NCBI GenBank assembly: GCA_032718475.1
Contig: JAUCBJ010006945.1
Coordinates: forward strand, 1-37,902
Reading direction: 5' to 3'
Length of the DNA stretch: 37,902 nt
Source of the DNA: Nemertoderma westbladi
Taxonomy: Eukaryota > Animalia > Xenacoelomorpha
Shown here: positions 1 through 31,735 of the stretch, piece by piece
How the letters are laid out: each line of letters begins with the position of its first letter
How positions within the stretch are numbered: the stretch's first letter is position 1
Notes under the pieces: model-generated
Told to the model about the DNA's origin: nothing
Databases searched by the model: none
Seen by the model: only the letters and a program-made list of their open reading frames with translations
Program-made: the position numbers and the translations under genes

Positions 1-75
1 GCTAAAGGTGATTTATTATCTAGAAGACATCCTAATTTGGCGGGTTAAACTGCCAAAGGTCTGAAAGCGCGAACA
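1..75 (+). mobile_element. 3' terminus of an LTR (3' or solo LTR) of a relative of the BEL/Pao element at 19306-31192
   Basis: 1-75 aligns by eye at roughly 80% to 20458-20536 and ends at the same terminus AAAGCGCGAACA. It is not followed by the internal-region start GTAACAG. Confidence 0.85.
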
Positions 76-9820: not shown

Positions 9821-10335
9821 TATTGTATTCTATAAGGGGAGAGCAGGGAGGGTTAAAAAATGAGGAGGGGTGAATCAGTGTAATTTAAAGGAGAACGCTT
9901 GGGTTGGGGGGCGTTTCCATGGATACACCATTTAGAGAGACAATTAAAAACTGTACCTACTGTTTTATTTAGTCCACCTCTAGGCTACATGCTGTTTGGC
10001 TATGAAGGAAAGTATACTTTTGCCACATGTTTTCTAGAACTGATACCTCTATTTTGGATCCCTCCCATTAGTTAATTTGACAATTCTCCAATAAATGTGA
10101 ATACTGTGATAATATACTTTTCTGGGGGATAAATTATTCTGCTTAAAAATTAGGTATGGATGATTATTGATTGCGTCACTTGTCTGCTCTTTTCGTACAC
10201 AATGCATTTTTCAAAAAATAGTAGTGCGAGAGGCTTGAATCAATGGAGGGGTAGGAGGGTTGAACCACTTCGGATGGATGGGTAGGATGGTTGAAACACT
10301 TTCCTATTATTGGTTGTTTTGTATAAATATTTATC

Positions 10336-11104
10336 TACAGGTTAAATATTTAGGTGCCACATTGGATAACTGCTTATCAGGACAAAGTACAGTGAAAAAT
10401 ATTTTCTCGAAAGTTAACAGTAGGCTTAGGTTTCTATACAGAAATAAAAATAGTTTGAACACCGACTCCCGCAAGTTACTTTGCTCTTCTTTAATACAGT
10501 GTCACATGGACTATGCTTGCTCTTCTTGGTATGAAGGCTTAACCAAACAGCTTAAATGTAAATTACAAGTAGCTCAGAATAAAGTAGTACGATTTATTAA
10601 AGACTACAAACCTAGGCACCACCTAACTCAAGATGACTTTTCTGAATCTGGACTACTTAACTTAGATAGTAGAGTTAAGCAGCTACGCCTTAACCATGTG
10701 CATAAAGTGTATAATGGTAAATGTCCCAATTACCTAAAACAAAAATTCAACAGAGTACGCGATACACACTCTTACAGTACCAGAGCTAGTGCTTCAAACT
10801 TCTACCTCCCGAATTGTAAATCCTTTGAATCTGATACTTTCTTTTTTAACGGCATAAAAAATTGGAACGCTCTGCCTAATGAAATTAAAAACCTAAATAA
10901 TCAACATTCTTTTAAATCTGCAGTTAAATCTCATCTCCGTGTGCAATGTAAAAATAGGTACAATAGTCCTACAGTAAGTTATTAGTTTATTAATTATTTA
11001 CTATTTATACTGTAATTACGTTTTATAATAAATTGTTCTGTACATTACATCTTTATCGTTGAGTCGGGCATTGTCACGCTCTCGGTAAAGTTGTACATGT
11101 ACAT
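10336..11104 (+). mobile_element. 5'-truncated LINE (L2/Crack/Daphne-like, CR1 group): ORF2 RT C-terminus and start of 3' UTR
   Basis: VKYLGATLD..LSG..VNSRLRFLYRNK..LCSSLIQCHMDYACSSWY..KLQVAQNK..HSYSTR..TFFFNGIKNWNALP..FKSAVK. Stop at 10983-10985. Confidence 0.85.
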
Positions 11105-11623
11105 TAGGGTGTGTCAAAAAATTTTTTTTTTCGATAATTCAATTTTCCTATCGTAAATGGGATGCCAAATTCATTAAAAATAACTTCAAAACAAATGAAA
11201 ACATTTTATTTTTACATTTGACCCCCGCACAAGCCAACTTTGTTTCGAACGTTTTTTCAAAAATTAAATTTTTTATGAAATTTTTTTCCTTTTATATTTC
11301 AACTTTCCCATATTTTATAGCATTCTTGGTTAGTTAGTTATTTGTAAGAAACGATAATTTTACAATTTCATATATGTTCTACCCCCGCACCTAGTCACCA
11401 AAGTAGGTTGCTTTTCACGAATACGCAAAAAAATATCGTTATTTATGTCATTATGTTTGTCAATGTGTATATTTAACCAACTTATCCCTAAAATTTGTGA
11501 TAATAAACAGTAGAACTGGGTCTGTGAACATTGTAATTAGTCTGGACGAGATCAGTACTATCAAGATGCTTTATTAATCACCACCAACACAATATAAGAA
11601 AAATCAGAATCCAATAACTCAAA

Positions 11624-12741
11624 CTAAACACCATCTGTACTACTGGGGATATTAAGGTTTATCTTTAGCTTAAAATCTTTCTTAGAATTAAATTTTGGCA
11701 TTGTTTGGCGACTAGATAATTGAGTTCTAATGTAGCCATCTCTCTCCTTAACACCGCAGACTCGTTTGGATACAGTTGACACGCATTGAACCAATTGTTC
11801 CACATTCTGGGAATGACATGGAATTTCCCATTTCATAGGACCTTTCTCCAGTAACATTTGTAGCTCAGTAAGAGATTTATTAGCTATTAAAGGGGGTTGA
11901 TGTTTCTCTTCATTAGTTTCAAGTAGCTCTAATAATGTATTCTCGGTACACGATATGTGAGGGGTACGGAACACTCTAATGATTGGCTCACTAGTTATCA
12001 ACTTCGATATTCTAATTTCACGTATTATATCAAACGCCTGAAATCGAGTGTCCTTATCTTCAGATGACAACAAAGATAATAATACATTTTCGCTGTGAGC
12101 ATAATATGCCCCTTGACGGAGAACTGGAAATATAATGGTCTTTTCATTATCGAGGAGTAACTTGTCACACAAAATCAACATATGGAGGAAGTGTAAAGCC
12201 CCGTATTGTATCTCCCAATTACGCTTTATATTAAACCAGGAAGGGGCATATATATTTATCACAAAATAAGAAAGACGGGAAAGTACATCAGATGGATCTT
12301 CGGTAGATACATAAAGCCGAAGGATTCTTGACGCAGTTGTAAGCCACCTCGAGTGACTGATAGGTCCTGGAGTTTTATTGGCGGTTGATTCACATAGTTC
12401 TCCAGATATTACTGCATTGCAGATATCAAATAAATATCGCTGATCACTCGAAAGTTTGGAAGAAACAGACTGTTCAAGTTCAGGAAAATTATTATTGATA
12501 ATAGGCTCAAATATAACAGGGCTAAATTTGTGACAATTATGAAGGAGTTTCCCAACTGGACCCGAAAATGTGTTGCTTCCTGTTGTAGTACCGTCAAGTT
12601 CTATTATCAGATGTCGAAGTGGAAGCTCGTTGATGTGAAGGAGGCATATCGCATGTTGAAGTGGTGTTTCTAGTTTCCGTTCGAGGTTCACAATTATTCC
12701 GTTTTTCCAGCCAGTATTAACGCTGGTGCTATCGCATCCAA
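11624..12741 (-). CDS. hATm-like transposase exon 2 (spliced product 742 aa)
   Basis: Acceptor TTTTCAG|TT gives in-frame DV-V-GCDSTSVNTGW (second D). Also CLLHINELPLRH, HSRWLTTA, YAPSWF and PCHSQNVEQ (catalytic E). Stop at 11624. Confidence 0.88.
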
Positions 12742-12908
12742 CTGAAAAAAATCAATGTAAACAATAATTTTTAAATAATAAATACCGTTATACCTCTACA
12801 TAACTTTTCCTATTGCCTACTGTATTTAGATTTTTCGGTAGTTGATTTCAGTTTGAGCTTAATGCGCCTAAATATATACGCCTATATAGGCCTATACGTT
12901 TATTATTT

Positions 12909-14106
12909 GGAAGCAGGACAATTCGGTCCCGGACAATTCGGTCCGGACAATTCGGTCCCGGACAATTCGGTCCCGGACAATTCGGTCCGGATAATTCGGT
13001 CCCGGACAATTCGGTCCCGGACAATTCGGTCCCATTAATTTTATGTTTTGGGACCGAATTGTCCGGCACCGAATTGTCCGGATACTGACTAGGACAATTC
13101 GGTCCCAAAACATGCATATTAATGGGACCGAATTGTCCGGAACCGAATTGTCCGGGACCGAATTGTAGGGGCCGAATTGTCCGGGACCAAATTTAATTGG
13201 TACTGTACTATATAATGGTGAATGTTCTAGAACCTTAATATATATTATTATATGGTAGCTAGTGTTTTTTTTTGCTAGCTAGTATTTTTTTTAAATAAAA
13301 AAATTTACTTTTTTTTTGTTAACATTATTATTTATGGTAGCTATGGTGTTTTTATGGAGCTTGTGAATTATTTACTAGCTAGTAATAGTATGTATTTAAA
13401 ATGTTTAAAGCTGATTTTTTTTAATATATTGCGTAAGTATACTGTATGTGTTGTTGGCTGGTTAACAAGCCTAAATTATTATCCTAGATATTAGCTGGAT
13501 CTCATTCAGGGACTGTTATAATATCATCAATATTGTTGGTAATTAATATAATCAGCAACAGTTTAGGCCTAATTCTGAAATATCATTGTTTTCACAGGTA
13601 TTTTTATAATTTCAAGGAAATGTTAGCTAGTAAAAAAAAACACTAGCTACATCTTAATAAATAATATATAATAATGTTCTCGAACACTACCAATAACAAA
13701 AATAAAAAAAATACAGTATTTTTAAAATTTCAAAAAATTCTAGCAAGTAAATAACACTAGCTACCAAAACAAATATCTCTACTAATGTTCTAGAACATTC
13801 ACCAATATCAAAAAAAGCACTAAAAAGTTGCTATCAGGAACCGGACAATTCGGTCCCGGACAATTAGGTCCCGGACAATTCGGTCCCGGACAATTCGGTC
13901 CCGGACAATTCGGTCCTAGGACAATTCGGTCCTAGAACTATTCGGTCCCGGACAATTCGGTCCCGGACAATTCGGTCCCATTTATTTAGTGTTTTGGGAC
14001 CGAATTGTCCGGGACCGAATTGTCCGGGACCGAATTGTCTGGACCGAATTGTCTGGGACCGAATTGTCCGGGACCGAATTGTCCGGGACCGAATTGTCCT
14101 ACATCC
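12909..14106. mobile_element. MULE/foldback-type MITE with 15-bp subterminal arrays (GGACAATTCGGTCCC), inside the transposase intron
   Basis: GG...CC termini, a 9-bp TSD TTATTATTT (12900-12908 and 14107-14115), and inverted arrays at both ends. Confidence 0.85.
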
Positions 14107-14426
14107 TTATTATTTCAGTAAGTACCAACCAGTATATACATAAATTTGTAACGTCCGACGTCCATATTTTCATTTCACATTTACACTGACTAATATAATT
14201 ATTTATATATTTATACGTTTCTCGATTTTAGATTAAAATTTTAAAAGTAGCCTACATTCCGAATTTTAATTTCGTATTTACTTTTTTAGTTATTTATATA
14301 CAATATTTATTTACTACAGCATACATTCGTATATCACCAACATACCAACATTATTTATTTATTTATTTACAATATTTATTTACTACATAGTATATATACT
14401 GGTACATTAGTATATCAACAACTTAC

Positions 14427-15537
14427 CAACATCAAGATTTTCGAGAGAAATATTCGGACTGGAATCGATGAAGTCCATTATAGCAGAAGTAACATCAGCT
14501 GATGCTCCTGTCACCGGAGCCACGTGGCCTAAATAGGCAGAGCCAGGTTCCCCAACAAGCACGAAATGCTCTTCTTTAATTATCTGCCGCCCTCCATCAG
14601 TTAGGGTGGGGTCTTTACGTCCATCAAAATACAAGCCAATGGGCTGAATTAAACCGCATCCGATTTGTAGATTTTGTCTAAGTTTCTGCCTCTCTCTTCT
14701 GATCTTATTATGATCAACAATATCTGCCGATGACCCGGAGTCACATATTGCTGAATTGTAAACCGCAGCAGCAGCGCGATTACTAAGATTATACCTATCA
14801 GAGATTTCTGCAACGTTTGTTAGACGAAGTCTTTTAGAAATTGGAGTGGATGTTGTTGGTTGGTATAATATTACCTTCTCCAATGAGTTTTCGCAACAGG
14901 ATAATTCAGAATTTGCTTCATTATTATCGCTATCTGTGCCACTGTCTAAAATAGCACTATCGCCCAGGGATACGCAACTAGTATGGGAGACTCCAGACAT
15001 AGTACGTTCATTACGCTTCCTCCTTTGCGCTCGTATTTTCGATTCAGTAACATCTACCGCATTGGAAATTATCATTATTCGTTGACCGCGTTGATCTAAT
15101 AAGAAGTTTCGTTCACATTCAGGGACTTTGTCGTTCGGCTTACACAGACATTTACTTTCAAAATCGCATTTACAAACGGCCACATCCAATAGTTTAGACA
15201 ATTCCGCTTCATATTTGGCAAACTGTTGTTTGACCGCCAAATTGGTTCTGCGAGAAACGGGAATTTTTTTAAGTTTACGACTACGATCAAAGAGTTCCTT
15301 GATGCGACTACCAAGACGAGTCACCGAGGAAACTGCCGGAATTCCTGCCATTGCCCAAATTTGAAGAACTGAAGCAGCGCAACTACGACATTCCTCGTCT
15401 GTATTTGTGACCCCATTGACTTTCTGCTCGCGCAGAAATATTACATGTTTCATACATTGTAATCCGGTTGGTAAAACCGAGCCCTTTAATTCTAATGAGA
15501 CACCAAAAAAATCATAAGTAGTTTTAGATCGCAGCAT
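14427..15537 (-). CDS. hATm-like transposase exon 1
   Basis: ATG at 15537; LPT..W..AGIP; CKC/CLC; FLLDQRGQR; GLYFDGRKD (first catalytic D); EEH..GEPGSAYLGHV. Phase-1 donor G|GTAAGT at 14427. Confidence 0.88.
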
Positions 15538-16060
15538 AGTAATAATTATTAACAACTAGTTTGACAGATCTAATTTACTCTACGTAAGACACTAGCACAT
15601 TAGTTAGTAGTGAAGTATGAAAAGGCATAGGCCTACCGGTGCACATTACTATTTCGTTTTATGAATAAATCAGAAACGTTTCCGTTTCAAATTTCCCGCT
15701 TAATATTATAATATTGCAGATAAGCCTATTATTTGTTGAGTAAGCGACGACCTACTTTGGTGGCTAGGTGCGGGGGTAGAACATATGTGAAATTGGAAAA
15801 TTATCATTTCTTACACATAACTAATAAACCGTGAATGCTATAAAATATGGGAAAGTTGAAATATCGAAGGAAAAAATTTTCCAAAAAATTAAATTTTCGA
15901 AAAAACGTTCGAAACAAAGTTGGCTCGTGCGGGGGTCAAATGTAAAAATTAAAAGTTTTCATTTGTTTTGTAGTTATTTTTAATAAATTTGGCATCCCAT
16001 TTCTGATAGGAAAACTTTATTATCGAAAATAAATTTTTTTTGACACACCCTAATGTACAT

Positions 16061-16299: not shown

Positions 16300-16860
16300 G
16301 CTGTATTTTTAAGAATGCTGTGCCGGCTTGTCGACAAAATTGCGCCGCCACAACTCCCTATCACCCATGACATTTGCTAGATCATACGCATCTTCAAGGC
16401 CAGTGTCCTTTAAGATGCGTCTCAAGAAAGTCATGGGCTGTCCACCATGCTTATTCACTCCATGAGGCTGCCAAAGTACAAGATTATGCCCTGGCTGGTC
16501 CTCACGGCGAAAGCAATGTCCTGCAAAGCGGAGGCGATTTTGTTCTAGTGTCAAGCTTGGGGGAACCAATGAGACACCTCCAATGTTATATAGTGTCTGG
16601 TTGGAGATGTGTGCATTGTACTTGACACAGTGAACCCGGCGTAGCATTCTTGTGAATGTGCCATCCAGAGATTTGGTGTCCTCAGCGGTTAGAGCCCAGC
16701 ATGGACTCCCGTAAAGGAGTACTGTAACTACTGCTGCTCTAAATAATCGGACCTTAAGTTTCCGATTAATTATCTGTGACTTCAAAATCCTGGAAAGCCT
16801 ATTCAAGACTGCCCATGCCTTTCCCTTACGTATGCGAAGGTCCTCCCGACTTCCGGATCC
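16300..16860 (-). mobile_element. RTE-clade LINE 3' fragment (RT C-terminus)
   Basis: DLRIRKGKAW..LKVRLFRAAVVTVLLYGS..WALT..LDGTFTRMLR..RLRFAGHCFRR..LVLWQP..DRELWR. Confidence 0.85.
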
Positions 16861-19305
16861 ATGATCCCAGGTAACAGAAGTCGTCCACATGCTCACCATC
16901 CTTTGAGCTTATGCTCATCCGATCAGAGACTTGCTGAGGACTTTCAAAATTGTCAAAATTTTGGTCTTTCTGGAGTTAATATTTTACTATCAATTTCTAA
17001 ATCATTGGCTTAACATCACTTACTGACTTACATGACTGACTTGTGCACTACTTATATTATTGTGATAAGTTTAGTCAGATCCGTTTATTGGATGAGGTAA
17101 TGGACGTCTCTGAATCAGTTGCAGAGAAACGCCAGGGAGCAGTTAAATAAGTGCAGAGAAAAAATGGACCGTGGTTGTTATACAGAGTATTTTAAACAAG
17201 CATATAAAAAGCGGCGCGATAGCGAAAATAAATTCAATAAATAAAAATAAATAAATAATGAAAATAAATAAAAACAATCGTTATATTTAACACGGGGTAA
17301 AAAGAATCGCGTAAAACAAGATTATCGGTTACACAGAAAAATGTTAATGAAAAACTTTTTCTATTTATTGGAAATCATGTAATTAGGTACATATAATTAA
17401 TACATAATTAAGTACATATAAATTAATGGCTGCGATGGTTTTATGGGCAAATATCACTGTTTGTTGCAGATGTGTTTGTCCAATAAATTACCTTCTTATT
17501 GAAGCAATAAGTTATAAAAATACTGCAAAATCCACATAACATAATTACCGTTACAGACGTTTGTCCCATAAATGTCACCACTGTAATGCGTTACAGTGGT
17601 AGATAAAAACGTTACAGATATCACATTAGTTTTTGCCACATATCCCTTTGAGCAGGGCGTCATGCTCTTCCTCTGACTCTACCATCACAAGATTCGCCAT
17701 GAAATTCTCTTTCGAATGGTGTATGGTACTGTATGGCACTAATTTCCGACAAAAATTTTTCGGTCAATTTGTACCCCTTTTTGGCCACTTAAGCTTATTG
17801 ACCCAGCTATTCATACATTAACGAAATGTTCCCAAATATGCCAGAATATGGTGTTATATTAAATAGAATAAAGTAGCCTCGCACAGATGCAAAACCATGC
17901 AACATTTGAACTCCCGTATCAAGCAGCAAAAGCTGCCATCCATCTTGCGAACAATTGTAATTATACTGTGGCTGGTTATATAGGTCTAATTAGGAAATTA
18001 TTTTGTTGCAAACAGCAAAAAAATCTTAAGTTTCATAGTATAAACGTTTCGAATGATGTTTGCACTCTTCCTAATTGGACTTCGGTTTCCCTCAGCTTCA
18101 ACCCTTTATATAGGTCTATTCTGATATTGGCTTCCAACAATATTATGGCTTCCAACACACACAGACTTTTGGAAAACGGCCATAGTATAATTATAACAGT
18201 TCGCTGATGGCTCGCAGTTTTGACTCTCCCCACAGTTATCGTTTCTATTAAAACGCCTTTCACTGTAATCGAAAGTGCTATAGATTATAAATAAATCTTG
18301 AAGTGACTGACTGACAGTTGCATTGCGTACCTTGTTGTACAGTATGTATTATCGAATACCGTTCGTGTTTATTGGTATAAATTACCTTAAAAAAAAGTAT
18401 ATTTTGTTACTCAGTTATTAAAGTATTGGCTTTATAATAATATTAATATTTTATAATTTGAAATAAAAAGGAATTTAATTTGCAATATAAATTTTGTAAT
18501 AAATTGTAAATGCGATCGTCGCACTTATCTAACCTCCAACAAATCTGTCCAGTCCAGTCGCGTTCTCATAAGATTCCTGATTTTCAATAAAGGTCATTGG
18601 TCAGTAAACGTGGCTCAAAGCGTTGCAAAATATTTTTTTTTTATTTCTTGCCGAACCCCAATATATTATATACCATTGGAATCGTCTTTTTGAGCTCTTT
18701 CCAGATCTGGCCAAAATATATAAATATACTCAAGTCTAAAAATTTTATAGGCGAAGTAACGCTAAATGCTATCCAAGGTAGACATCCAAGGTATACATGG
18801 GTTCAAGGTATACATTTTTGTGTACCAAGGTATACATTGGTTAAATTTTCAAGGTATACGTTTTGTGTACCAAGGTATACAATTTGTGTAACAAGGTAAA
18901 CATAGGTTCAATCTTTAATGCATGAGATTTGTGTATCAAGGGTTACGATATTAGTGATTTTGAAAACAAGTGAACAAGGAAGGTAGGCTATATCTGGGGT
19001 CAATATATTCAGTTCAATATTCAGAGTAAACCTTTGTACAGTATGTATTTAAAGTTTCGGGAGACAGATGCACTGTAACTACTTAATTATTGATAGTAAT
19101 TTACATATGTCTGTTTTTTGTATGTGTTGTGTACGACATCATTTGCTATAAACACGACAAATCATTACAAATAAACAAATTAAATATGTTCATTAACTTA
19201 TCACAATAGTTAACTGAAGCCCCAGAAAAGCTGTTCGACTAGTTTGCGTGTTTCATCGCCTCTAAGTTTACATGGTGGTGGGGTGGGGTGGGGGTAGGGG
19301 GTCTG

Positions 19306-20536
19306 TGTAAAAGCTTCTGTGGGATATAACTGGCCCCTTTTGCTTCGCAATCCAGTTTCCCCCAGGCGCTGGAATACTCTAAAAGGTTCTCTAACTGTAT
19401 ATATATTCCCCTCGCCCGCAAGGTACCGTTACAGGTGTTTTAACGGACATAAAAGCCATTCTGCTATATACGTGTTTTGGCGGACATGGTAAGGCAAAAA
19501 ACCTGTAATGCACCAACTACCTTTCACAGCTTAGCCGTGATGATTCATATTACGACATCTAACAGCTGGTTGCTGACATGGAAACAGCCATTGGACGCAT
19601 AGTTCTTTGTTTGGCTTGAGCCAATCAGAGCGATTTTTCCTGTCGACGTGTAGCTTTTCAGCCGATCATAAGGAGAGTGTTCAGTCTTACTGCCTTACTT
19701 GATACTTTGTTGTTATTGCTGTCTAAGCCAGAAACACCGGCTTTTTGGTAAGAACTCTAGTAAACTGCTTAGATTATAGAAAGTATAACTGTTACCGGCG
19801 GTGTTACCTCACTTAATTTAACTGCACTAATCATATTGTTTGTACTGCTATTTACCGTCAGTTATTAATTGTATCTATTTGTTGATGGAAATATTGCTCT
19901 TTGGAGAATACGGATAAATCACCCAAAATTCCCAATTTTCTTGATACACTACAGGTTAGAGAGGCGGGCTATATATAACAATTGCGATTTATATCAATGT
20001 GGTGTGTATTGAATCTAATGTTATTTAGTAGACACTACCTGAGTCAATTGCTGTTCTCTTTATGTGTGATCAAATATACTGACGGTCGGCAGAATAGTGT
20101 GCATGATTGTGAGTGTGATGTGACTGGTAACAAAGCATTTCCTAAAGAATGCGACTTATACTTTAATCATAAGCCTTATCGTTGCGTTTAGTATAAGTCC
20201 TAGCTCTGTTTAAATAGATAGAGCGCCACGTCCTAAAGGAACTGTTAATATTTCCCGAAAGTTAATAATATCTGTCAGAAATTACATATTAGCGATCAAT
20301 CGAATAATACAGTAGGCTTACACTGCAACCTTACACTGCAATAATAAAATCTAAGCATCCGAATTCAGCCTCCCGGGTGTAGATCCATCGGGTGAATGAT
20401 CGCGCATGGGCTGGCTTCGGCTAATGTTTTGCGTATTAGCATAAAATATTGTCATATGCTAAAGGTATGTTAATTAACTAAAAGACATATAAATTTTGGC
20501 AGGTTAAACTGCTAAAGGTCTTCAAAAGCGCGAACA
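19306..20536 (+). repeat. 5' LTR (1231 bp)
   Basis: TGTAAAAGC...GCGCGAACA, a direct repeat of 29960-31192. It contains CCAAT (19621), an Inr-like TCAGTC (19681) and AATAAA (20343-20348). Confidence 0.97.
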
Positions 20537-20917
20537 GTAACAGTTATTTAATCTTATTGCAGTAGGCAATAAGGTTGCAAGTGTAGGCATTAAATACAGT
20601 TTAATACTGTTCTGTCGAACAGTAACAGTTTACAATCTTATTGCAGTAGGCAATAAGGTTGCAAAATACCGTAGTGACTGGTAAAACTGAACCGGTGCTT
20701 CTGTAGGTCAGTAGGCCTAACTGTCATCACCGGTACCGGTACTGCTGTACAAGTACATTTAGTATTATTCGATTTTGATTATTGTATACCGGTAGGTCTC
20801 GATATTAAATCGGGGACGCCTGGTTTTTATTGGGATTTTACTTAGGTCTATTTCTGTCAGTTTTATTTACTAGTAGGCTAATATTGAGCAGAAGGCGTGT
20901 GACCCTGCTCAGATTGT

Positions 20918-21490
20918 TCAGATAATTGTAGGCTGGGCTGCTGTCTGACTGTGTTGAGTTTGGAGAGATTACGGCGTGTGTAGAGTTTGTCTGATAAAGT
21001 GCCGTTAGTAAGTTGGGGCAGCCATATGCTGAAGGTCAATCCCCTCTTAAAGAATAAGTCGTACTACCGTGTTAGAACGCATACTAACTAACAGTTTCAG
21101 AGTCTGCATATACTGTAGTTTATTTAGGCTTGATCGTAGTCTGCCAGTGTTTTAGCCTGTGTTTGTTTGTGTGGTCTGTTCAGGTACCGTAATAGTTATT
21201 ACTCAGATATTTTGTAGGCTGGATTGTTGTCTAGCTATTATTAGGTCTGAAGAGATTGCTGCGTGTGTAGAGTTTGTCTGATAAAGCTCCGTTAGTAAGT
21301 TGGGGCAGCCATAGCGGTAAGGTCAATCCCCTCTTGAAGAATAAGTCGTACTACCGTGTTAGAACGCATACTAACTAACTATTTCAGAATCTACACGTAC
21401 GGTAGTTTATTTAGGCTTGGTGGTAGTCTGCCAGCGTTTGGTTTGTATTTGTTTGAGTATTCTGTACGGGTAGCGTAATATTTATTATTC
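20918..21490 (+). repeat. Two diverged ~285-bp tandem copies in the retroelement 5' leader
   Basis: 20918-21202 versus 21203-21490, with shared blocks such as GTTAGTAAGTTGGGGCAGCCATA and AGAATAAGTCGTACTACCGTGTTAGAACGCATACTAACTAAC. Confidence 0.9.
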
Positions 21491-22798
21491 AGAGTTTATG
21501 CGATTATTCGCAACATTCATGTCCCCAAGTTTATTCCTACAGTAATTGTGTTTGTTACACATACCGTTATAGTTAAACTAACCCCGGTACTACATCAGGG
21601 CTGCTTGGCGTAGGTAAAGACTGACGACTTGGTGCTTCGGTCACTCCAGCAGATGCCGTGGTTCTTTTAACTGTTCAAGTATATTTAACTACTGATTATT
21701 TGTTATACCGGTACTTGTACCTAATTTAGGGTTTAGTGTACAGTGCTTTCCGAAGTAATTAGTGTAGGCAGTATATTCGTGTTGTAAAGTGGTTGATAGG
21801 CACATTCGTTAGCTCTATTAGCTTCTGGGTAGGAACAATCCGTGATACATAACGTAGTACCTATAGCGATACGGTTATAGGTCGTCAGGCGGTGGTATTT
21901 TCCTATCTGGACAGTACAATATATTTACTACTACTTATTATTTTCAAATACCGTAGTACCCTGTTCATTGTAATAACCAGAATTCTAACCCTTTGTTAGG
22001 CTGGTTTGTAGACTTCCTGTAAAATTACCCTAAAAATTTTGTACGTAATATTTTTGTTGTGTTTAATTAGAGAATTAATCTCACCCGTATCGTAAGTAAT
22101 TTGTAGTATTAAGTAACTTAGGTAAATTAGAATTATCAGTTTTAGTGTCTCAATAAGTAACACTTCACTGACAGCGCACAGCTTCTGTGTAGTGATTCCC
22201 CCAGAAATAATAACATTTATTTCAAATATTGACAAAAAACCCATTTAAACGGGTATATAAATATTATAAATCAACTCAAACGATTTATAAATAGTAGGCC
22301 ATACGACAACTAGGTCTCAATATCAGTTGGACTACTGCTTAAATAACGGTAACAAAGTAAGTAACCAAGTAGCCCTAAAATATTCAGAGATTCAATTATT
22401 CTAAAATAATTGACATACCGGTACTCACTATAGGCTTATTATATTTATCTCTATAAATTTGAGCTGAAATCATACCGGTACTCTGTAATTAATTCTAGTT
22501 CATAATTATACTTACATGCTGTAAGTGTAAGCTGTATACCGGTATTCATTATAGGCCTATTATATATTTATATATATTTGTGCTAAAAATTATATACCGG
22601 TACTCTGTGACAAATCTAGTCTGTAATAATACTTATATATATATTATAAGCATACCGGTATTCTAATATATTATATATATATCACGCTACACTGAGTAGC
22701 AGTATCGGTAATTAATTATTAGGCTAACAGTGATACGGAATTACTAGACTTACTTTAACTGTATTTATAGCCGTAGGCATTCAACTGTGTAAACAAAC

Positions 22799-25700
22799 AT
22801 GTCAGATTCAACCAAATCACTGTCAGATAGTCTCTTAGAAAGTGTTAGAATGAGTATTAGACTTAGACAGCGTATTAAAAGGATCCGTGACCAAGATCCA
22901 AGTATAGAACATCCTAGATCCAAGTCTAAGTCACCTACTATTGTAAGAAAGGCCATCCCTACAGTAGTAGTGTCAGACCCTAGGCTAGTAGAACAACGTA
23001 GGTCTATCATCGGCACTCGGGCCCAAGTCAAGCGGGATCAAGAAGCAGCTGTCAAGCAGCAGCAACATCCTGGCCAGGAACCTAGTTCTCAGCGGCCCGA
23101 TGGCTCCAGTAGTTCGGATGCTGTTGAGCGGACGCCCGAACGCAGAGCGGAGATGGCGGATATGGTTTATGATGAGCGGCCAACCTATGAAGAATCAACC
23201 GACGCCACTTCTTCTCAAGAAGAAAGCGAGGTGGAAAGCGAAGTGGAAAGCGAATTAACAGCAGCAGAGAAGCCGCGAACTAGAGACGCCATTGACATAT
23301 ATCTGTCAGACTATCAGCGATTCATAGGAGACGAAGAGTTGAGGAGACGACTGTCTGGACTTCGCCCTAATAGTGAAGGAACCAAGCTTGTGTTGGACGC
23401 AATCGATGCGGAAATGTTAGCTGCAGAACAAGCTAAACGTGATGAAAAACTCCGCCTCATTAGAGTTCGAGAAGAACAAGTAAAGAAAGAACTGATAGAG
23501 AGAAGAAAGGTAGCAGCAGCAGCGGCGGCGGAAGCAGAAGCAGAAAGAAAAGAAGCAGAAGCCGAAAGAAAGGCAAAAGCGGCAGAAGCAGAAGCCGAAA
23601 GAAAGGCAAAAGCGGCAGAAGCAGAAGAAGAAAGAAAAGCGGCGGAAGCCGAAAGAAAGGCAACAGTGGCAGAAGCAGAACGGAGAGCGTCTGAGGCGAC
23701 TATCCAATTGGAGTTGGAAAGGCTGCAAGAGACGCAAGACAGTATAAATAAACAGTCTACTGCTAATCAAATGCAGATGATGAGAAAATCTACTCCCAAG
23801 CGTCAAGGATACACATCCTCGGAGGAAGGCGATACTACCGATCCTGAAGGCGGAGGAAATAAATCTCATTTGAGTAGGCGTAGAAAAACATATTACCGTC
23901 GCAAATTGCCTGATTTGCCCCCAGCTGTTAAAAGACAGCTAACTAGCACAGATTTAGGTAGTGCAGAACCCATAGAACAATTTATCCAGGTCAAAAGACT
24001 CCCTACTATAGTCGATGAACCTGAAATAATTAGGCCTGTAGTTCCCAAAGTCACTTCTGTGCTAGAGACCCCTGCACTTCCAGAGCTTAACTCTAAATTC
24101 CCTTTACATAGCACTACACTGCCTGTACCCGGTGGAACAGTTCATGCAAATACCCCTGTCCAGATAGCAGAGAGAGAAATCAATAATTTGTCTCCCGTCG
24201 TCCCGCGTCAGCCCGCTACTATGTTGGCGACTCCCGCTTCGGCGGTTGAGTGGGTGGAAGAGGGACGGCGGGGGATGAATCTTCTGCTAGGACAGATGCA
24301 GGAGACTGTCCACCAACTTAAGGGAACAGTGAGGGAAGGTAGAGCAGAGTTGCAAGAAGTGCAGCAAAGTATCGCGCTAGAACGCGACAAATTAGTCAAC
24401 ATACTAAAAGGCATACCAATACCCCCTGTAACATTGTGTCAACCCGTTAGGTCTGAAGTATTACATGCGCAAGGTGTGGAGCCTACACGCATCTATACTG
24501 CTAGTGAAGTTGAAACTCCTATAGCAAACCCTATTAAGGGTGATTATAGACCTGTTATTAATGATATTCCCTGTAGACCTGATAATGATCCGAGAAATTT
24601 ATATACCGATAATTCGATATTAAATAACACGATGGTCCAAGAAAGCTTTACGCGTCAGATGGCTAGAACAGAAGCCCGCCAAGCGGTCAAAGTGGGAGAG
24701 ATCGTCAAATTCAATGGAGATGAGATGAAATGGTTACCTTTCAACGAATATTACAAAGATAGCATACAGAACTCTGTACTATCTAACGGAGAGAAACTTA
24801 GATTCCTCATCAAGTGCTTGGAAGGACCTCCCAAGTTAATGGCGTTAAAGTTTATTGGACATCCAGATGGATTAAGACAAGTTTGGGATACACTAAACAT
24901 CAGGTATGGTAACAAGGATAACATAGCTAAGTATTTGTATGCAAAATTAGTAGCCCCCCGACACTTCCTTAGTAGCGGGATTATAGAGTTTTCCGATGAA
25001 ATTCAAGAGATCTGTAGACAACTGGACTGGTTAGGTAAGTCGCATGAATATCAGAGTTCCATGGTTATTGGAGCCGTAGTCTCTACTTTACCAAAGGGTG
25101 GAGTATGTACACGCTGGGACAAGAAAGTGTTGTACATGAATGAACAACAACGACGAAGTCCTATCATGGCTGATCTCATGTCTTTCTTAGATAGTGAAGT
25201 AAAATTACAACTCATAAGGCAGGCCAGAGAGAAAACATCGGAAAATAAGGTAAGTGAGAAACCCGATTCTAGGAGAAGGATAATACCAGTGTGTTATACT
25301 GACGACGGCGAAAGCCAAGCTTCTCAAGAAGAGGACAGCGGGAAAGACACAGCAAAATCTTACTATGACAACAAGACCTATAAAGACGTAAGTAAATACA
25401 AGTCTCGAACCAGTGACAGGAGAGAACAGGTAACAACAACTCCTCCTACGTCTCCTAAGAGAATTCACGGAAGGAAGCCCGAAGAAAGAACGAGAGTGCA
25501 TAACGTTAACCAAGTTAAGGTGAGTAACATCAAACCAAAATGTGCGCTGTGCGACGGGCCTCACCGTTTGAGTGCGTGTGCTGAATTTCTAAAGAAATCC
25601 CCTGTAGACAGACGTACAGTCCTGTGGAATAAGCGGCTATGCTATAATTGCCTCAGATCAGGACACCAACGGCGAACCTGTTACTCCGACGTAAAGTGTG

Positions 25701-26968
25701 CAAAGTGTGGCGCGAAACATCACATCTTGTTACACAGTGAGTTCGAACGAGACAACCCGAGTCAGGTAAGTGAGCCCGAACTACATGTCCAATTCAGTGA
25801 TGTGAACGACACTGACCAAGGTTCTGAGTGGGAAGGATTCTATACAGACGAATTCTCCGATGCCAACGAATCCTGTTATCTAATGAATACCACAGTGTAT
25901 CGAGCACTTACGGATGAAAAGGACACTGACGAGTTTACTCCAACTCCTTTTGACAAACAACCATCTTGGAAAGTTCCAACTTCCAACATAGGAATAAGAG
26001 AATTTCCTGTAGTGCAAGTTCGAGTTCATGGTCCCAACAAGAGTTACATAGTGAACGCCCTACTTGACTCCGGCAGCACAGGAACATTCATCAATCAAGA
26101 ACTAGCCGAAGATATCTTTGCTGGACAACCCAAGTTCCGGACTAAATTGAATATGTCAGGAATTATGCAGGTTTGGAAATCTACCCTAACGGCAGATTAC
26201 TATGTAGGTGTGTTGTCCACCCCCCAGGATAAGTTAGGAACACAAGGTATAAGGTCAGTAAAAATGGTGGCCATAAAGAACTTTGCTACTACTCAAGCAG
26301 AACCTTATAACTGGGACGAGGACGAGTGCATCCAACATCTTGAGATACCTCGATTCCAAACCGATTATCCTGGAGTGCAAATCCTCATCGGCCAAAACGC
26401 GCATGAGGCGCTCGAGACATTGGAGAAACGGCCTGCTCAACCGCAGCCATTACAAACTTATGCGGTAAGAACTAGAGTAGGTTGGTACTTCACTGGCCCT
26501 TCCCGTAGAACTCTCAAAGAGAGATTACCTCAACCACAGGTATACCAAGTAAAGGGGGAAGTGGAGAGCAGTGATGTGGACGATCCAACTGAGGGAACAC
26601 CATACGCCTCAGATAATGACGATATTAACTCCAATGTAGATCAATGGAGACATTGCCTTGGGACGATTAATCCAGCCGACATCGATTCCAGAAGAGCAAC
26701 TCCTCAAGAACGGATAGATACTCCCGGCTGGTTAGGTGGACCCGACTCCCTAAGTAAAGAAGAAGATGAATGGCCTCCTCATCTTACCACTGAGGAGATT
26801 AGACAGGCCAAGGGAGCGGCGGAAGTAACACGACAGCCTAATCACCCAGCTGGTCGTTTATGTTTACTGGAAAGAGACCAAAAACTGTCCGGAAACTATG
26901 GAAGGCAAGATACTCTTCCTACGACCACTTCCCTAATCCGACAAATATCTAGGGACTCCATAACATAA
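22799..26968 (+). CDS. gag: BEL/Pao Gag-aspartic protease polyprotein fused in frame to an RNase H C-terminal remnant (1389 aa; no RT or integrase)
   Basis: DUF1759-like capsid region (KFNGDEMKWLPF..EKLRFL..L..RYGN). BEL triple knuckle CALCDGPHRLSAC / CYNCLRSGHQRRTC / CAKCGAKHHILLH (25541-25735). Protease LLDSGSTGTFI (~26060), ILIG, AVRTRVGW. Then QWRHC..NPADIDSR..WLGGP..EWP. Confidence 0.93.
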   Translation: MSDSTKSLSDSLLESVRMSIRLRQRIKRIRDQDPSIEHPRSKSKSPTIVRKAIPTVVVSDPRLVEQRRSIIGTRAQVKRDQEAAVKQQQHPGQEPSSQRPDGSSSSDAVERTPERRAEMADMVYDERPTYEESTDATSSQEESEVESEVESELTAAEKPRTRDAIDIYLSDYQRFIGDEELRRRLSGLRPNSEGTKLVLDAIDAEMLAAEQAKRDEKLRLIRVREEQVKKELIERRKVAAAAAAEAEAERKEAEAERKAKAAEAEAERKAKAAEAEEERKAAEAERKATVAEAERRASEATIQLELERLQETQDSINKQSTANQMQMMRKSTPKRQGYTSSEEGDTTDPEGGGNKSHLSRRRKTYYRRKLPDLPPAVKRQLTSTDLGSAEPIEQFIQVKRLPTIVDEPEIIRPVVPKVTSVLETPALPELNSKFPLHSTTLPVPGGTVHANTPVQIAEREINNLSPVVPRQPATMLATPASAVEWVEEGRRGMNLLLGQMQETVHQLKGTVREGRAELQEVQQSIALERDKLVNILKGIPIPPVTLCQPVRSEVLHAQGVEPTRIYTASEVETPIANPIKGDYRPVINDIPCRPDNDPRNLYTDNSILNNTMVQESFTRQMARTEARQAVKVGEIVKFNGDEMKWLPFNEYYKDSIQNSVLSNGEKLRFLIKCLEGPPKLMALKFIGHPDGLRQVWDTLNIRYGNKDNIAKYLYAKLVAPRHFLSSGIIEFSDEIQEICRQLDWLGKSHEYQSSMVIGAVVSTLPKGGVCTRWDKKVLYMNEQQRRSPIMADLMSFLDSEVKLQLIRQAREKTSENKVSEKPDSRRRIIPVCYTDDGESQASQEEDSGKDTAKSYYDNKTYKDVSKYKSRTSDRREQVTTTPPTSPKRIHGRKPEERTRVHNVNQVKVSNIKPKCALCDGPHRLSACAEFLKKSPVDRRTVLWNKRLCYNCLRSGHQRRTCYSDVKCAKCGAKHHILLHSEFERDNPSQVSEPELHVQFSDVNDTDQGSEWEGFYTDEFSDANESCYLMNTTVYRALTDEKDTDEFTPTPFDKQPSWKVPTSNIGIREFPVVQVRVHGPNKSYIVNALLDSGSTGTFINQELAEDIFAGQPKFRTKLNMSGIMQVWKSTLTADYYVGVLSTPQDKLGTQGIRSVKMVAIKNFATTQAEPYNWDEDECIQHLEIPRFQTDYPGVQILIGQNAHEALETLEKRPAQPQPLQTYAVRTRVGWYFTGPSRRTLKERLPQPQVYQVKGEVESSDVDDPTEGTPYASDNDDINSNVDQWRHCLGTINPADIDSRRATPQERIDTPGWLGGPDSLSKEEDEWPPHLTTEEIRQAKGAAEVTRQPNHPAGRLCLLERDQKLSGNYGRQDTLPTTTSLIRQISRDSIT

Positions 26969-28591
26969 TAACATATGGAGTGGGTGTGTGACTATATCAT
27001 TTTATATTTGTTTTTATTTTATATTTATGTATGTATTATTACGTAATTTTATTATAATCGTTTTCTTTAATTTTATTTAGTAGAATGTTATTTTAGCGAT
27101 TATTTAGTAGATTAGTGCAATATATTAGTGTTTATTACGTACGTAATTACTTATAATATATATTTAGTGCGACGGCGAGAAATAATTATTTTTTCTCTTT
27201 CCTTACTGTCCGTATTATATTATAAATGCGAGACTATAGTAAGATGACATGTCAGTACTTATTAAAGTACAATAAAGCCACTACTATATTCAAGTATTAT
27301 TGGTAGGCAGAGTATTAGGAATGCAAAGTTCAGATCCTCGTGTCTCGGCTAAACCAAGCTCTGGGTAGACCTTGGAAACGACTTGCCTCTTCACACTGAC
27401 ATTGCTTCGTGCGATATTGCTCTTCTACCTTATAACAAATAATACATATAGTAGCGTGATGTCCCTCTAACAGTAGCGTAAATCGCAAATAAATCTGTTA
27501 AACTTTTGACCTTCTGTAATTCTAGTCGATTAAGATATCGTGGCACCCACCGATATACTTGAAAGACAAATTCTAGAATCAGTGGTTAATGTCCCCAGAC
27601 AAGTTCTGGAATAAATCGGTGCCCATCCTAAATATTAATTTAATATTTATTAAAATCTGTAAAATCTCGATCCTTTAAAATTTCTAGTCAATTAAGATAT
27701 CGCAGTATTTACCGATATTCTTAGAAGGACTATTTTATAGAATTAAGGATCCTAAGTCCCCAGATATGCTCTGGAATAAAATTTGTGTCAATTTAACATC
27801 AAATAATAAAATTCACGGGAATAAATTTAAATTCATATTCAAATGAATTTCATAAATTGTCATTTTGTGCAATTTATAACATTCCCAAAATTCCAGTAAT
27901 TAATAGATCATGGGAGCGGAGATTCATATTGAGTGTATTAGAGTGTGAGAATCTCCAACATATAGTCAATAGCCGATAAAATTTATAAAATCATGCATAA
28001 AGAGGATATTGACAATTAAAGAATTACTATTAAATAACATCCCAGATCTGTATGCATGAGAATTACCCTAATTCTACCGCTAGTTTTCCATAATGTCACC
28101 ATGGCAACACCCACGCTGGAATTAGAAGCAAGTTAAAGGAACAATAAAGGCTTGCCCCATTGCGTAGCATAAGAGAATACATAGCGCACTATTAGTATCC
28201 AAGGATACATAGTAATAACGTGACATTCTGGAAGACAATGACTAACGGACAAAATGGCTTGCATGTGTGCAGTAAGTAATGTTTGTATGGAATTTGTGCG
28301 TTTATAGGTGAATGATACTACTAAAGTGTGTTTACAGTAGCTAATCGCAATTGTAAAGTAGCCTAACTCTACCGAGATAACCTCAAGTGGATTCAAGCCT
28401 TTGGGACGGACAGTGGTGGGACTTGTGTCGATTATCGTTGTCGTGCTGTTGCTACATGTTGGCGCAAACACCGCGACAACGGTACATCGGCGCTGAGAAA
28501 CCCACTGTCCGGGGTCAAAGACTAGTAGGCAGCGACGCCCGCTTGCCTAAATATTGACTCATACTAATATTAATAAACTCAGATAGCAGAT

Positions 28592-29881
28592 ATGACGGAA
28601 TTAATAGAAGATGACCTTGGTATTAGAGAGCGATATACTCTACCTTTACAAGCGTTTGTGGATAGTTTGATACGCGGTGAAGCCGATCCGACTATTACGG
28701 AGGACGATGGTCGTTATATCGAACCGCCGATGTCCCAGGAACAACTTACGCGTGAATTGGACTATAGAAAATTCACCGCTCGCTATACGAATCGTAATGG
28801 TACGTATATGGACTTCTTAACTACCGGCCATCCTATCGATTTACATGATACGGACGATGTAGACACCCTAAAGGGAAATGGTTCTATTTAAATATCATAC
28901 CCAGCGGAGTCGTAACGATAAACCGAGAATAGATCACGAAAATTCTATTCGTAACAGACTGGGAAGACGAACCAATATGCCTAGAATCTGAGGAGATTCA
29001 GCCTATCGCGCTCGGAACAGCGACAACGATTACATCCTAGAATGGTATCAAGGTCCACAGTGTCTCACTGCGTACGATTATCGCCATGCCAACTATGTTT
29101 CTCGGCAACGTTGTCGGTTATGCGCATCGAGAGACCCTGTTACGCCCATGGACACAAACGTCCGCTGTTCCTATTTCCACGAACAACCGGCGATGGAAAT
29201 TTATTGAGCGTATTGCAGATTTAATAATTTGCATATTTTTGCGGTTTGCCCTCAATTTATGACTCAATGTCACCACTGTCCACTAAAGGGACACGCCAGT
29301 TTCGATTGCCCTTTTAATCGCGATTTGGAAAGCGTAGATGAAATGATCACACTACGTTACATTAGAGCTTGGGAAGCGAACGCTGATTTACATCGTGATT
29401 CGCGCCATCGCTATTATCCTGGACGCGCTTACGAAGGAATTTATGCGTTCCATCCTTATCTATTCGCTTCTGTCGAACAGAAATCACGCATATCGAGTTA
29501 CAGGAAGTATATCGACGGCCTTACGAGTACCGAGCCCGCGAACGCGAGTTGGAAAGAACCATTAAACCAAGGAAGTTTCTAACTACTTATGGTCCACCCA
29601 CGGCCCTCGTGCAGACCACTCGTACAGGACCCGTAAGAGCGGCTGTCTTGAAACGAGCTCTCAAAGCCGTTAGACCCCTCTCCCCGGACGTTGATGTCAA
29701 TCAACCCGGTACTTCGACCGGCGGATATACCGATCGCAATCCCATACCTTCTGATGCAATCATATTGCACCCTTCACCCAGGAGTTATAGCCCTCCTCGT
29801 AAAGTGGCTCGCCCCAAAGAGAAAAGGACTCTTGCTAGCTTTAAAAAACTGCGTAAACGCCGTCCGCGCAAGAAAGACTAA
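28592..29881 (+). pseudogene. Decayed accessory ORF (~430 codons) with CCHC zinc knuckles and a basic C-terminal tail
   Basis: The track's short ORFs join through a frameshift at about 28871, in-frame TGAs at 28989 and 29205, and a frameshift at about 29550. Motifs are *AYCRFNNLHIFAVC and CHHCPLKGHASFDC; it ends KKLRKRRPRKKD. Confidence 0.6.
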
Positions 29882-29950
29882 CTGTTTAGAGTATTTTTAT
29901 ATTTTAGAAACTGTGATTTTGTATATTTTATAGACTTAAATCCCATTTTC

Positions 29951-29959
29951 TGGGAGCGG
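29951..29959 (+). other. Polypurine tract
   Basis: TGGGAGCGG immediately 5' of the 3' LTR TGT. Confidence 0.65.
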
Positions 29960-31192
29960 TGTAAAAGCTTCTGTGGGATATAACTGGCCCCTTTTGCTTC
30001 GCAATCCAGTTTCCCCCCAGGCGCTGGAATACTCTAAAAAGGTTCTCTAACTGTATATATATTCCCCTCGCCCGCAAGGTACCGTTACAGGTGTTTTAAC
30101 GGACATAAAAGTCATTCTGCTATATACGTGTTTTGGCGGACATGGTAAGGCAAAAAACCTGTAATGCACCAACTACCTTTCACAGCTTAGCCGTGATGAT
30201 TCATATTACGACATCTAACAGCTGGTTGCTGACATGGAAACAGCCATTGGACGCATAGTTCTTTGTTTGGCTTGAGCCAATCAGAGCGATTTTTCCTGTC
30301 GACGTGTAGCTTTTCAGCCGATCATAAGGAGAGTGTTCAGTCTTACTGCCTTACTTGATACTTTGTTGTTATTGCTGTCTAAGCCAGAAACACCGGCTTT
30401 TTGGGAAGAACTCTAGTAAACTGCTTAGATTATAGAAAGTATAACTGTTACCGGCGGTGTTACCTCACTTAATTTAACTGCACTAATCATATTGTTTGTA
30501 CTGCTATTTACCGTCAGTTATTAATTGTATCTATTTGTTGATGGAAATATTGCTCTTTGGAGAATACGGATAAATCACCCAAAATTCCCAATTTTCTTGA
30601 TACACTACAGGTTAGAGAGGCGGGCTATATATAACAATTGCGATTTATATCAATGTGGTGTGTATTGAATCTAATGTTATTTAGTAGACACTACCTGAGT
30701 CAATTGCTGTTCTCTTTATGTGTGATCAAATATACTGACGGTCGGCAGAATAGTGTGCATGATTGTGAGTGTGATGTGACTGGTAACAAAGCATTTCCTA
30801 AAGAATGCGACTTATACTTTAATCATAAGCCTTATCGTTGCGTTTAGTATAAGTCCTAGCTCTGTTTAAATAGATAGAGCGCCACGTCCTAAAGGAACTG
30901 TTAATATTTCCCGAAAGTTAATAATATCTGTCAGAAATTACATATTAGCGATCAATCGAATAATACAGTAGGCTTACACTGCAACCTTACACTGCAATAA
31001 TAAAATCTAAGCATCCGAATTCAGCCTCCCGGGTGTAGATCCATCGGGTGAATGATCGCGCATGGGCTGGCTTCGGCTAATGTTTTGTTTATTAGCATAA
31101 AATATTGTCGTATGCTAAAGGTGTGTTAATTAACTAAAAGACATATAAATTTTGGCAGGTTAAACTGCTAAAGGTCTTCAAAAGCGCGAACA
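29960..31192 (+). repeat. 3' LTR (1233 bp)
   Basis: Differs from the 5' LTR by about 6 substitutions and 2 single-base homopolymer indels, counted by eye. Confidence 0.97.
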
Positions 31193-31735
31193 GTCTGCTA
31201 AGCTAGTTCCTTTGAAATGCTATGTAAGCATGCCTCTCGCGGTTTAGATGTTGGGACTGTAGCAATTTTCGACAGCCTGTTTTTCGTGGCTCTTTGAGGA
31301 AGTTTGTCCGGATTAAAATACCTCAGATGGTGCTTGTTACAGAATTTACCTTGCAGGTAATGAGAACAGTAGCACGAGGTATTCCTTCTGGGACGGGATC
31401 CATTCTATCCGGTGAATTTGTCTCGTTTTTGGAATGAGTTTGGGGGAAGTTAATGTTTCTGGAAGACTATCATGTTCACCCTTCAAATCGACCAGCGAAA
31501 TGATCGAGAAATGGCAACTGCTCATATTATCTTTTGCGAATGATTGGAACTCTTCAGATAACCCACCCCCACTCCTGAACGCGTGCCTTTATGAACGTCC
31601 CTAAAGTTATTTTGCCAAGTACCGGTAAATGAATTATAACGGTATTCTGATTTCAGGCCTGGAGATAATTGAGTTAAATACGTGGCACATCACACAGTAA
31701 CTAAGGTCCGTGCTAGAATGCTAGATTGAAATCCC

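Follow-up and report, generated by a model that had tools for sequence, protein, structure and literature searches.

How does an LTR retrotransposon begin reverse transcription when no tRNA-type primer-binding site (PBS) follows its 5′ LTR? The question is raised by an 11.9-kb LTR element that spans positions 19306-31192 of the stretch of DNA analysed here (37,902 nt, hereafter the window). GTAACAGTTAT stands directly after the 5′ LTR of this element, as the initial annotation had observed, and the analysis found no TGG in the next 30 nt. The family Belpaoviridae, to which the element is assigned below, is described in its ICTV profile as replicating by tRNA priming, with an 18-nt PBS for host tRNA-Arg or tRNA-Gly (PMC8742986). 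No such 18-nt site is present here, and to judge from its sequence the element departs from the tRNA rule stated for the family.

The element and the sequence after its 5′ LTR

The following features, all on the forward strand, define the element and its candidate priming sites.

19301-19305 (+): left copy of the 5-bp target site duplication (right copy 31193-31197)
19306-20536 (+): 5′ LTR, 1231 nt, TG...CA, delimited by pairwise LTR comparison
19771-19776 (+): 6 bp by which the primer helix might be lengthened, through pairing with 20549-20554 beyond an internal loop; weak and AU-rich in the duplex fold
19785-19795 (+): candidate self-primer, complementary to the PBS at all 11 nt; the RNA is predicted to begin here or close by
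20343-20348 (+): likely poly(A) signal AATAAA, the sole AATAAA/ATTAAA of the LTR
20537-20547 (+): non-tRNA PBS that abuts the LTR (offset 0); in the predicted fold its bases are largely unpaired (0.60-0.95) and lie in a loop between flanking duplexes
20616-20664 (+): second copy of LTR end, PBS and leader start, 94% identical, whose PBS retains 9 of 11 pairs
22793-26968 (+): single ORF, 1391 aa, characterized by protein profile and homology searches
29952-29959 (+): likely polypurine tract, a purine-rich tract adjoining the 3′ LTR
29960-31192 (+): 3′ LTR, 1233 nt, with an identical 11-nt primer (30441-51) and R arm (about 30972-31000)

The ORF contains, in order, a long N-terminus, a BEL Gag (DUF1759), zinc knuckles, a protease (LDSG) and an RNase H tail of about 50 aa fused in frame downstream of the protease. 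The Gag matches PF03564 at E 8e-12, the protease match is weak (E 0.013, below the cut-off), and identity to BEL polyproteins is 22-47%. When 30 relatives were used as tblastn queries, no RT or integrase similarity was found anywhere in the window. By its Gag, zinc knuckles and protease, together with the LTR pair, target duplication and polypurine tract, the element is of the BEL/Pao type (Belpaoviridae): it has in common with Semotivirus (BEL, Pao, Tas, Suzu, Sinbad) the Gag-protease, TG...CA LTRs (here 1.2 kb), 5-bp duplication and purine tract, and differs in having no tRNA PBS, RT or integrase. Its sequence marks it as a young, defective, non-autonomous derivative, for which the enzymes of a partner would be needed. 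The LTRs are 99.35% identical (eight differences), and with the target duplication intact this suggests that RNA of the element was likely copied recently with the present PBS.

Inside the 2.2-kb non-coding leader are two 290-nt repeats (20918-21493) that are 85% identical. Frameshifted ORF pieces with a CCHC knuckle and a basic tail lie upstream of the 3′ LTR at 28577-29881; Pfam gave no match for them, and an ESM Atlas search with the ORF piece near the 3′ LTR returned leads all under 0.9. Elsewhere in the window, long inverted arms (11097-11408 and 15750-16060) flank two ORFs on the minus strand (375 and 382 aa), neither of which has a Pfam match, and 15-bp tandem inverted arrays at 12901-14124 interrupt this 11097-16060 unit, which is likely a DNA transposon with a nested insert. 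An intron-less ORF at 6144-7052, with two RRMs and a Gly-rich linker, is by appearance what we take to be hnRNP M-like and is possibly a retrocopy. Pieces at 10239-10985 and 16309-16908 resemble in appearance the C-terminus of a non-LTR retrotransposon ORF2; the sole profile match of the latter is a weak one, to DUF6451.

The PBS is complementary to 19785-95 at 11 of 11 positions, and the predicted primer:PBS duplex has an energy of −11.7 kcal/mol; no primer longer than this LTR match is encoded elsewhere in the element. The element thus has a PBS that adjoins the 5′ LTR and is complementary to 10-11 nt of that LTR, as is typical of Tf1. The self-complementary PBS of Tf1 is likewise given as 11 bases (PMC7175516), and the threshold for self-priming in a plant survey was at least 10 bp at 0-5 bp from the LTR (PMC6317226), which 11 nt at offset 0 passes. 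In dinucleotide shuffles, an 11-nt self-match arose in 5 of 5000 at offset 0, in 29 of 5000 at offsets 0-3 and in 36 of 5000 at offsets 0-5.

These frequencies bear on a first alternative, in which the match is a product of chance or a relic, the PBS is degenerate or used by an unseen primer, and the R:leader duplex described below serves poly(A) masking or packaging. About 0.7% of shuffles reach 11 nt and 2.3% reach 10 nt at offsets 0-5, which leaves some room for chance, and the lack of RT and integrase is in favour of this alternative; the likely recent copying with the present PBS speaks against it. Variation at the PBS itself is on the side of this alternative. Sequencing run X1 contains 40% of the words searched, as contigs, and behaves like DNA, whereas coverage in runs X2 and X3 is confined to the flank. 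Two X1 contigs have A instead of G at 20537, so that base 1 of the PBS is variable, and this would be a mismatch unless the LTR side had changed too, the primer region being represented by one low-depth contig.

A single PBS unit is present in one X1 contig. Tandem duplicates of LTR end and PBS, which were seen in the window (20531-20664) and in the related locus L029 (1463 and 1509), possibly arose from a slip at plus-strand transfer.

Folding of U5, R and the leader

Four further stretches, also on the forward strand, are needed to describe the fold around the PBS.

20316-20344 (+): R-region arm of a 29-bp R:leader duplex, whose final two bases overlap the start of AATAAA
20554-20588 (+): leader arm of this duplex, with an alternative local 12-bp hairpin (−12.6 kcal/mol)
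20356-20534 (+): U5 hairpins of the initial annotation, from complementarity and folding
1-75 (+): LTR end of a related copy, 81% identical

The initial annotation described U5 as a highly structured RNA domain that ends exactly at the LTR terminus. The first part of this description stands, since 20350-20547 is more stably folded than its shuffled versions (z −2.41; 3 of 200 shuffles reach its level), but neighbouring sequence is comparable: 190-nt neighbour windows fold equally well or better (20541-20730, z −4.84; 20066-20255, z −3.16), which does not fit a distinct domain. Moreover, the 29-bp duplex between 20316-44 and 20554-88 crosses the LTR terminus, so the fold does not stop there. 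Each of the helices proposed for U5 is indeed complementary at its place, the AAGAC/GTCTT pair being located at 20482-86/20518-22. In the predicted ensemble of the 5′ LTR, however, only helix 3 (20436-62, P 0.93), inner helix 4 (20495-516, 0.98) and 5b (20365-71 with 20408-14, 0.66) are populated; helix 1 (20400-05 with 20528-33) and 5a (20356-62 with 20388-94) are both at P 0.03 and the cUUCGg hairpin is at 0.00. The 3′ LTR copy, in contrast, is dominated by helix 1 (P 0.94) and 5a (0.87). The crossing helices 5a and 5b may possibly form together, an arrangement outside the reach of the nested model. The terminal stem strand of U5 (20528-34) has its partner at 20400-05 or, in the 5′ LTR only, at 20428-33.

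A few variants bear on these helices. In the LTR end at 1-75, two substitutions fall in inner helix 4 with pairing kept and one outer pair is lost. In one X1 contig 5b differs at two positions and still pairs at both; one of these changes disrupts the UUCG stem. Among the variants listed, 2 of 10 lie inside helices, which make up 63 of 153 positions (P 0.14), and the few listed from three partial U5 variants include no double-sided change, so that covariation in U5 was not seen.

Could the U5 fold itself be a ribozyme, or a retron-like branching RNA, that generates its own priming hydroxyl, as the initial annotation had suggested? The better-than-shuffled folding, the crossing of 5a and 5b and the preservation of pairing by both listed X1 changes in 5b are what such an RNA might show. 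An Rfam search, on the other hand, gave no near-threshold family (3 weak matches, E 2.1-3.7), and scans of both strands with a relaxed HDV descriptor and a hammerhead core gave 0 matches each; neither a nested double pseudoknot with a catalytic C nor a CUGANGA...GAAA core was found. The UUCG stem is not populated in the ensemble and is disrupted in one contig, the listed variants do not significantly avoid the helices, and a PBS with an exact partner requires no branch. We therefore regard a self-cleaving or branching U5 as very improbable. Self-priming of the Tf1 kind, which the annotation mentioned as background only, is now the favoured mechanism, and in our structural model the U5 hairpins make more sense as an arm of a priming scaffold.

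The other arm of such a scaffold would be the R:leader duplex. Its 29 pairs (28 Watson-Crick and one G-U) give −38.4 kcal/mol, with z −4.3, 0 of 300 shuffles as good and P 0.98; it encloses the entire U5 fold and starts 7 nt past the PBS, and thus is predicted to join sequence just 3′ of the PBS to the LTR downstream of the primer, as in Tf1. According to PMC10085805, Tf1 needs three duplexes, primer:PBS and two that join PBS-adjacent sequence to the LTR downstream of the primer. A U5-end stem just 5′ of the PBS is predicted with 6-7 bp in both LTR copies, its partners differing between them and stems of such length having no null distribution for comparison. All three duplexes of the Tf1 pretzel accordingly have candidates in the modelled RNA, the U5-end stem being the weakest. 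The overlap of the R:leader duplex with AATAAA would also suit a role in poly(A) masking, as supposed under the chance or relic alternative.

In nested folding the primer helix has P 0.00, and forcing it costs 5.5-15.6 kcal/mol; the primer strand is partly engaged in other predicted pairs, several bases being unpaired at only 0.01-0.16 in two of three folds. Because the R:leader duplex crosses the primer helix, the two cannot appear together in nested folding, which may explain both the zero probability and the forcing cost.

Primer-binding sites of related BEL/Pao elements

Relatives were collected with an alignment of 12 BEL/Pao polyproteins, which led to 79 metagenome loci, and 9 more brought the set to 88. 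The latter (L080-L088) are BEL/Pao elements within nine prokaryote genome records, likely from host contamination. No tRNA was found in the window or in the 88 loci. The DNA pattern of the LTR end had 0 matches in metagenome contigs and 0 in viral contigs, and protein scans of viral contigs gave no relative.

For 40 of the 88 loci, chosen for upstream sequence and a locatable ORF start, the sequence after the LTR was scanned against LTR splice junctions, with 40 leader shuffles each. In 11 of the 40, against 0.08 expected, a complement of at least 11 nt (11-15 nt) to the junction of a GT-AG LTR intron was found after the LTR. These 11 loci represent 10 families (L015 and L016 being one), and the match of L029 is doubtful, as two scans place its junction match at different sites. 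The LTR end was fixed independently only in L006, L012 and L015, and in the others it was deduced from ACA or ATA plus the match. A curated set of 11 families was obtained by adding L022 (from a looser scan) and L034 and omitting L029. The self-complementary sites are as follows.

Junction-type PBS: L002, L005, L006, L012, L015/L016, L022/L023, L033, L034, L035, L046, L066
Contiguous self-complement (LTR scan): L001, 753-763; L032, 72-81

Once the intron is removed, each of the 11 curated families has 11 of 11 Watson-Crick pairs, compared with 6-8 in unspliced RNA, and the donor is GTAAGT in nine. The LTR intron is 76-426 nt in length in the junction families, with 4-9 nt of the match on the exon-1 side. 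PBS pair positions 3-11 use 2-4 pair types among the curated families, and differences of PBS and junction between the sister families L034/L035 and L046/L066 are double-sided. In L018, L050 and L069 the PBS fits the junction model on the side that is present (8 of 8 pairs with the donor side in L018), the other splice site being absent from the contig. Of 14 relatives, 12 have a paired stretch that starts with GT, and 12 carry a poly(A)-like hexamer in the interval from primer to LTR end. Folding gives the predicted primer helix a P of at least 0.75 in 7 of 12 relatives and of at most 0.01 in 3. Inspection by eye gave no TATA-like motif at a fixed distance upstream of the primers.

TGG elements behave differently from the junction families: where LTR ends are defined by the pair, TGG is at most 5 nt away and a self-match of at least 8 nt occurs in 0 of 7, and among the 40 scanned loci 0 of 8 with TGG (assigned by eye) have a junction match. 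TGG is lacking in many of the other relatives. Contiguous self-matches of at least 10 nt were found in 8 of 40 loci, where 1.42 were expected; one or more of these are false positives, among them the TGG element L051. Those of L001 and L032 look real from the sequence; in L001, where the LTR pair sets the LTR end, the contiguous 11-nt match is retained in a second LTR that is 74% identical. The LTRs of L001 (911) and L015 (91) apparently end in TATA rather than CA.

The primer might instead come from the host, either as a tRNA fragment (Ty5 and copia use half-tRNAs) or as some other small RNA, and six PBS bases of the window element resemble what is presumably the complement of a GUU anticodon loop. 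Such priming is established for Ty1/copia elements (PMC6317226, PMC10886601), and the former restricts its use among plant elements to Ty1/copia. The PBSs of the relatives all differ, each fitting its own junction only; cross-family matches of PBS and junction number 0 of 110 among the 11 curated families, which is not expected from a shared tRNA pool. We consider a host RNA primer improbable.

With regard to the alternative of chance or relic, self-complementary PBSs are common among BEL/Pao relatives, and the offset-0 match of the window element starts with GT like that of most relatives. The distance from primer to LTR end is atypical, 752 nt in the window element compared with 74-195 nt in 14 relatives. 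When both strands of evidence are considered, the alternative retains a small share of the probability and is unlikely. The primer:PBS duplex of the window element is also weaker in this comparison (−14.7 vs −17.2 to −20.6), and no R:leader duplex reached significance in any of 13 relatives.

Unlike that of the splice-junction form of BEL/Pao, the PBS of the window element is not one that pairs with the junction of a GT-AG LTR intron. A spliced primer was sought for it and rejected, the best GT/GC-AG junction giving 10 nt compared with the contiguous 11 nt (unit 1). A donor-like GTAAG at 19749 in the 5′ LTR reads GGAAG in the 3′ LTR; there is a second strong donor-like site at 20109, and the stretch surrounding it is missing from some X1 contigs.

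A Gag-protease tree was built from 26 rows; L046, L066 and L051, in which the knuckle pattern failed, were left out. A starred clade of 13 rows unites the junction families with L001 and a fish protein, the TGG elements being mostly separate. The nesting of L001 among junction-type families is as expected if splicing of the 3′ copy cost it the LTR intron. The window element falls outside this clade, on a long branch (2.0) at an unresolved base with L029 and L036, and two FastTree runs put it on opposite sides. L018 is the top-scoring relative of its protein (121 bits). A position of the window element within the subclade that scored best was rejected (AU p 0.001, LG+G4, the group having been picked after scores were seen). 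Considering the long branch outside the junction clade and this rejection, the evidence from the relatives transfers to the window element only by analogy.

A proposed model of self-priming and its relation to known systems

Together, the PBS match to the element's own LTR, the Tf1-type arrangement of three duplexes and the same logic in relatives back the proposal of the initial annotation that priming is independent of tRNA. We think it likely that the element primes reverse transcription with its own RNA, in a Tf1-like manner. Our confidence is held at this level by the absence of a junction, the unresolved long-branch placement, the 752-nt loop, the weaker duplex, the missing R:leader duplex in relatives and the PBS variants of X1.

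In our model, transcription would start at or shortly before 19785, because threading an 11-bp helix into a closed loop requires a free end. The R:leader duplex and the U5-end stem would keep the PBS open within the loop, and the free 5′ end of the RNA would thread in and form the crossing 11-bp helix, giving the pretzel of Tf1. RT supplied in trans by an autonomous partner would then cut after 19795 with its RNase H, the new 3′-OH would prime minus-strand DNA at the terminal CA, and the first strand transfer would proceed via a long R of about 580 nt. The R:leader duplex would arise at the 5′ LTR only, and masking of the 5′ poly(A) signal may be a further effect of it. For most marine relatives, the model has the primer put together when the LTR intron is spliced out; the window element represents the form without an intron. 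Such relatives would have to remove the 5′ intron and keep the 3′ copy, otherwise their progeny would lose the intron. Intron loss through splicing of the 3′ copy would yield contiguous forms, such as L001 and perhaps the window element.

By the sequence tests applied here, the element appears to work like Tf1, yet it does not belong to the Tf1/sushi group. Tf1/Tf2 of Schizosaccharomyces pombe, Tj1 and Tosmo1-3 share with it an 11-nt PBS directly past the 5′ LTR that is complementary to their own LTR, and two extra duplexes (PMC7175516, PMC4600332, PMC10085805) between PBS-adjacent sequence and the LTR downstream of the primer, which in our element are predicted only. Tf1/sushi elements are Ty3/gypsy chromoviruses with a chromodomain integrase, whereas the window element is of the BEL/Pao type with a DUF1759 Gag. 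In further contrast to Tf1, its loop is 752 nt, its leader duplex 29 bp, and its start site and RNase H cut are deduced. The primer is split by an LTR intron in many BEL/Pao relatives, and none is described for the Tf1 group in the portions of text available.

Evidence of the same type, a post-LTR complement to the LTR of at least 10 bp, led to the prediction of self-priming in plant Tcn1 (gypsy) and TAR (copia: Houba, Osr-1) elements (PMC6317226); these belong to other superfamilies and hosts, and the available part of that survey reports no splice-junction form. The fungal GalEa conserved hairpin site and bivalve TRIMs likewise have no tRNA PBS and a hairpin-forming sequence past the 5′ LTR (PMC5445492, PMC6934838). 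Their authors found no LTR complement for these sites, whereas the window element has an exact one. A search of the literature, in the portions searchable and outside Repbase notes, GyDB and subscription journals, showed neither self-priming nor splice-junction priming to have been reported for BEL/Pao (including PMC3601003, PMC8220671, PMC5443660 and PMC10886601). The words ‘PBS’ and ‘tRNA’ are absent from the main texts, as available, of a BEL/Pao survey (PMC3118150) and the Sinbad paper (PMC554778).

A broader reading joins these lines, and we regard the chances for and against it as evenly balanced. Self-priming would be the rule in a large marine and fish branch of BEL/Pao, in which the spliceosome would build the primer from a 5′ LTR intron that must stay in the 3′ LTR. 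The window element would then represent a deep intron-less lineage with an independently built full Tf1-style pretzel, whose 29-bp clamp would open the PBS and hide the 5′ poly(A) signal.

Tf1 is a demonstrated case of self-priming, and predictions exist for certain gypsy and copia lineages; if self-priming is true of this element as well, it would be present in all three LTR superfamilies. This would bear on whether self-priming or tRNA priming came first, a question raised in PMC3601003, and, we infer, on escape from control by tRNA fragments. It would also offer an annotation rule for BEL elements that seemingly have no PBS. The splice-junction form, if true, would make reverse transcription dependent on splicing and on the unequal treatment of two identical introns in one RNA.
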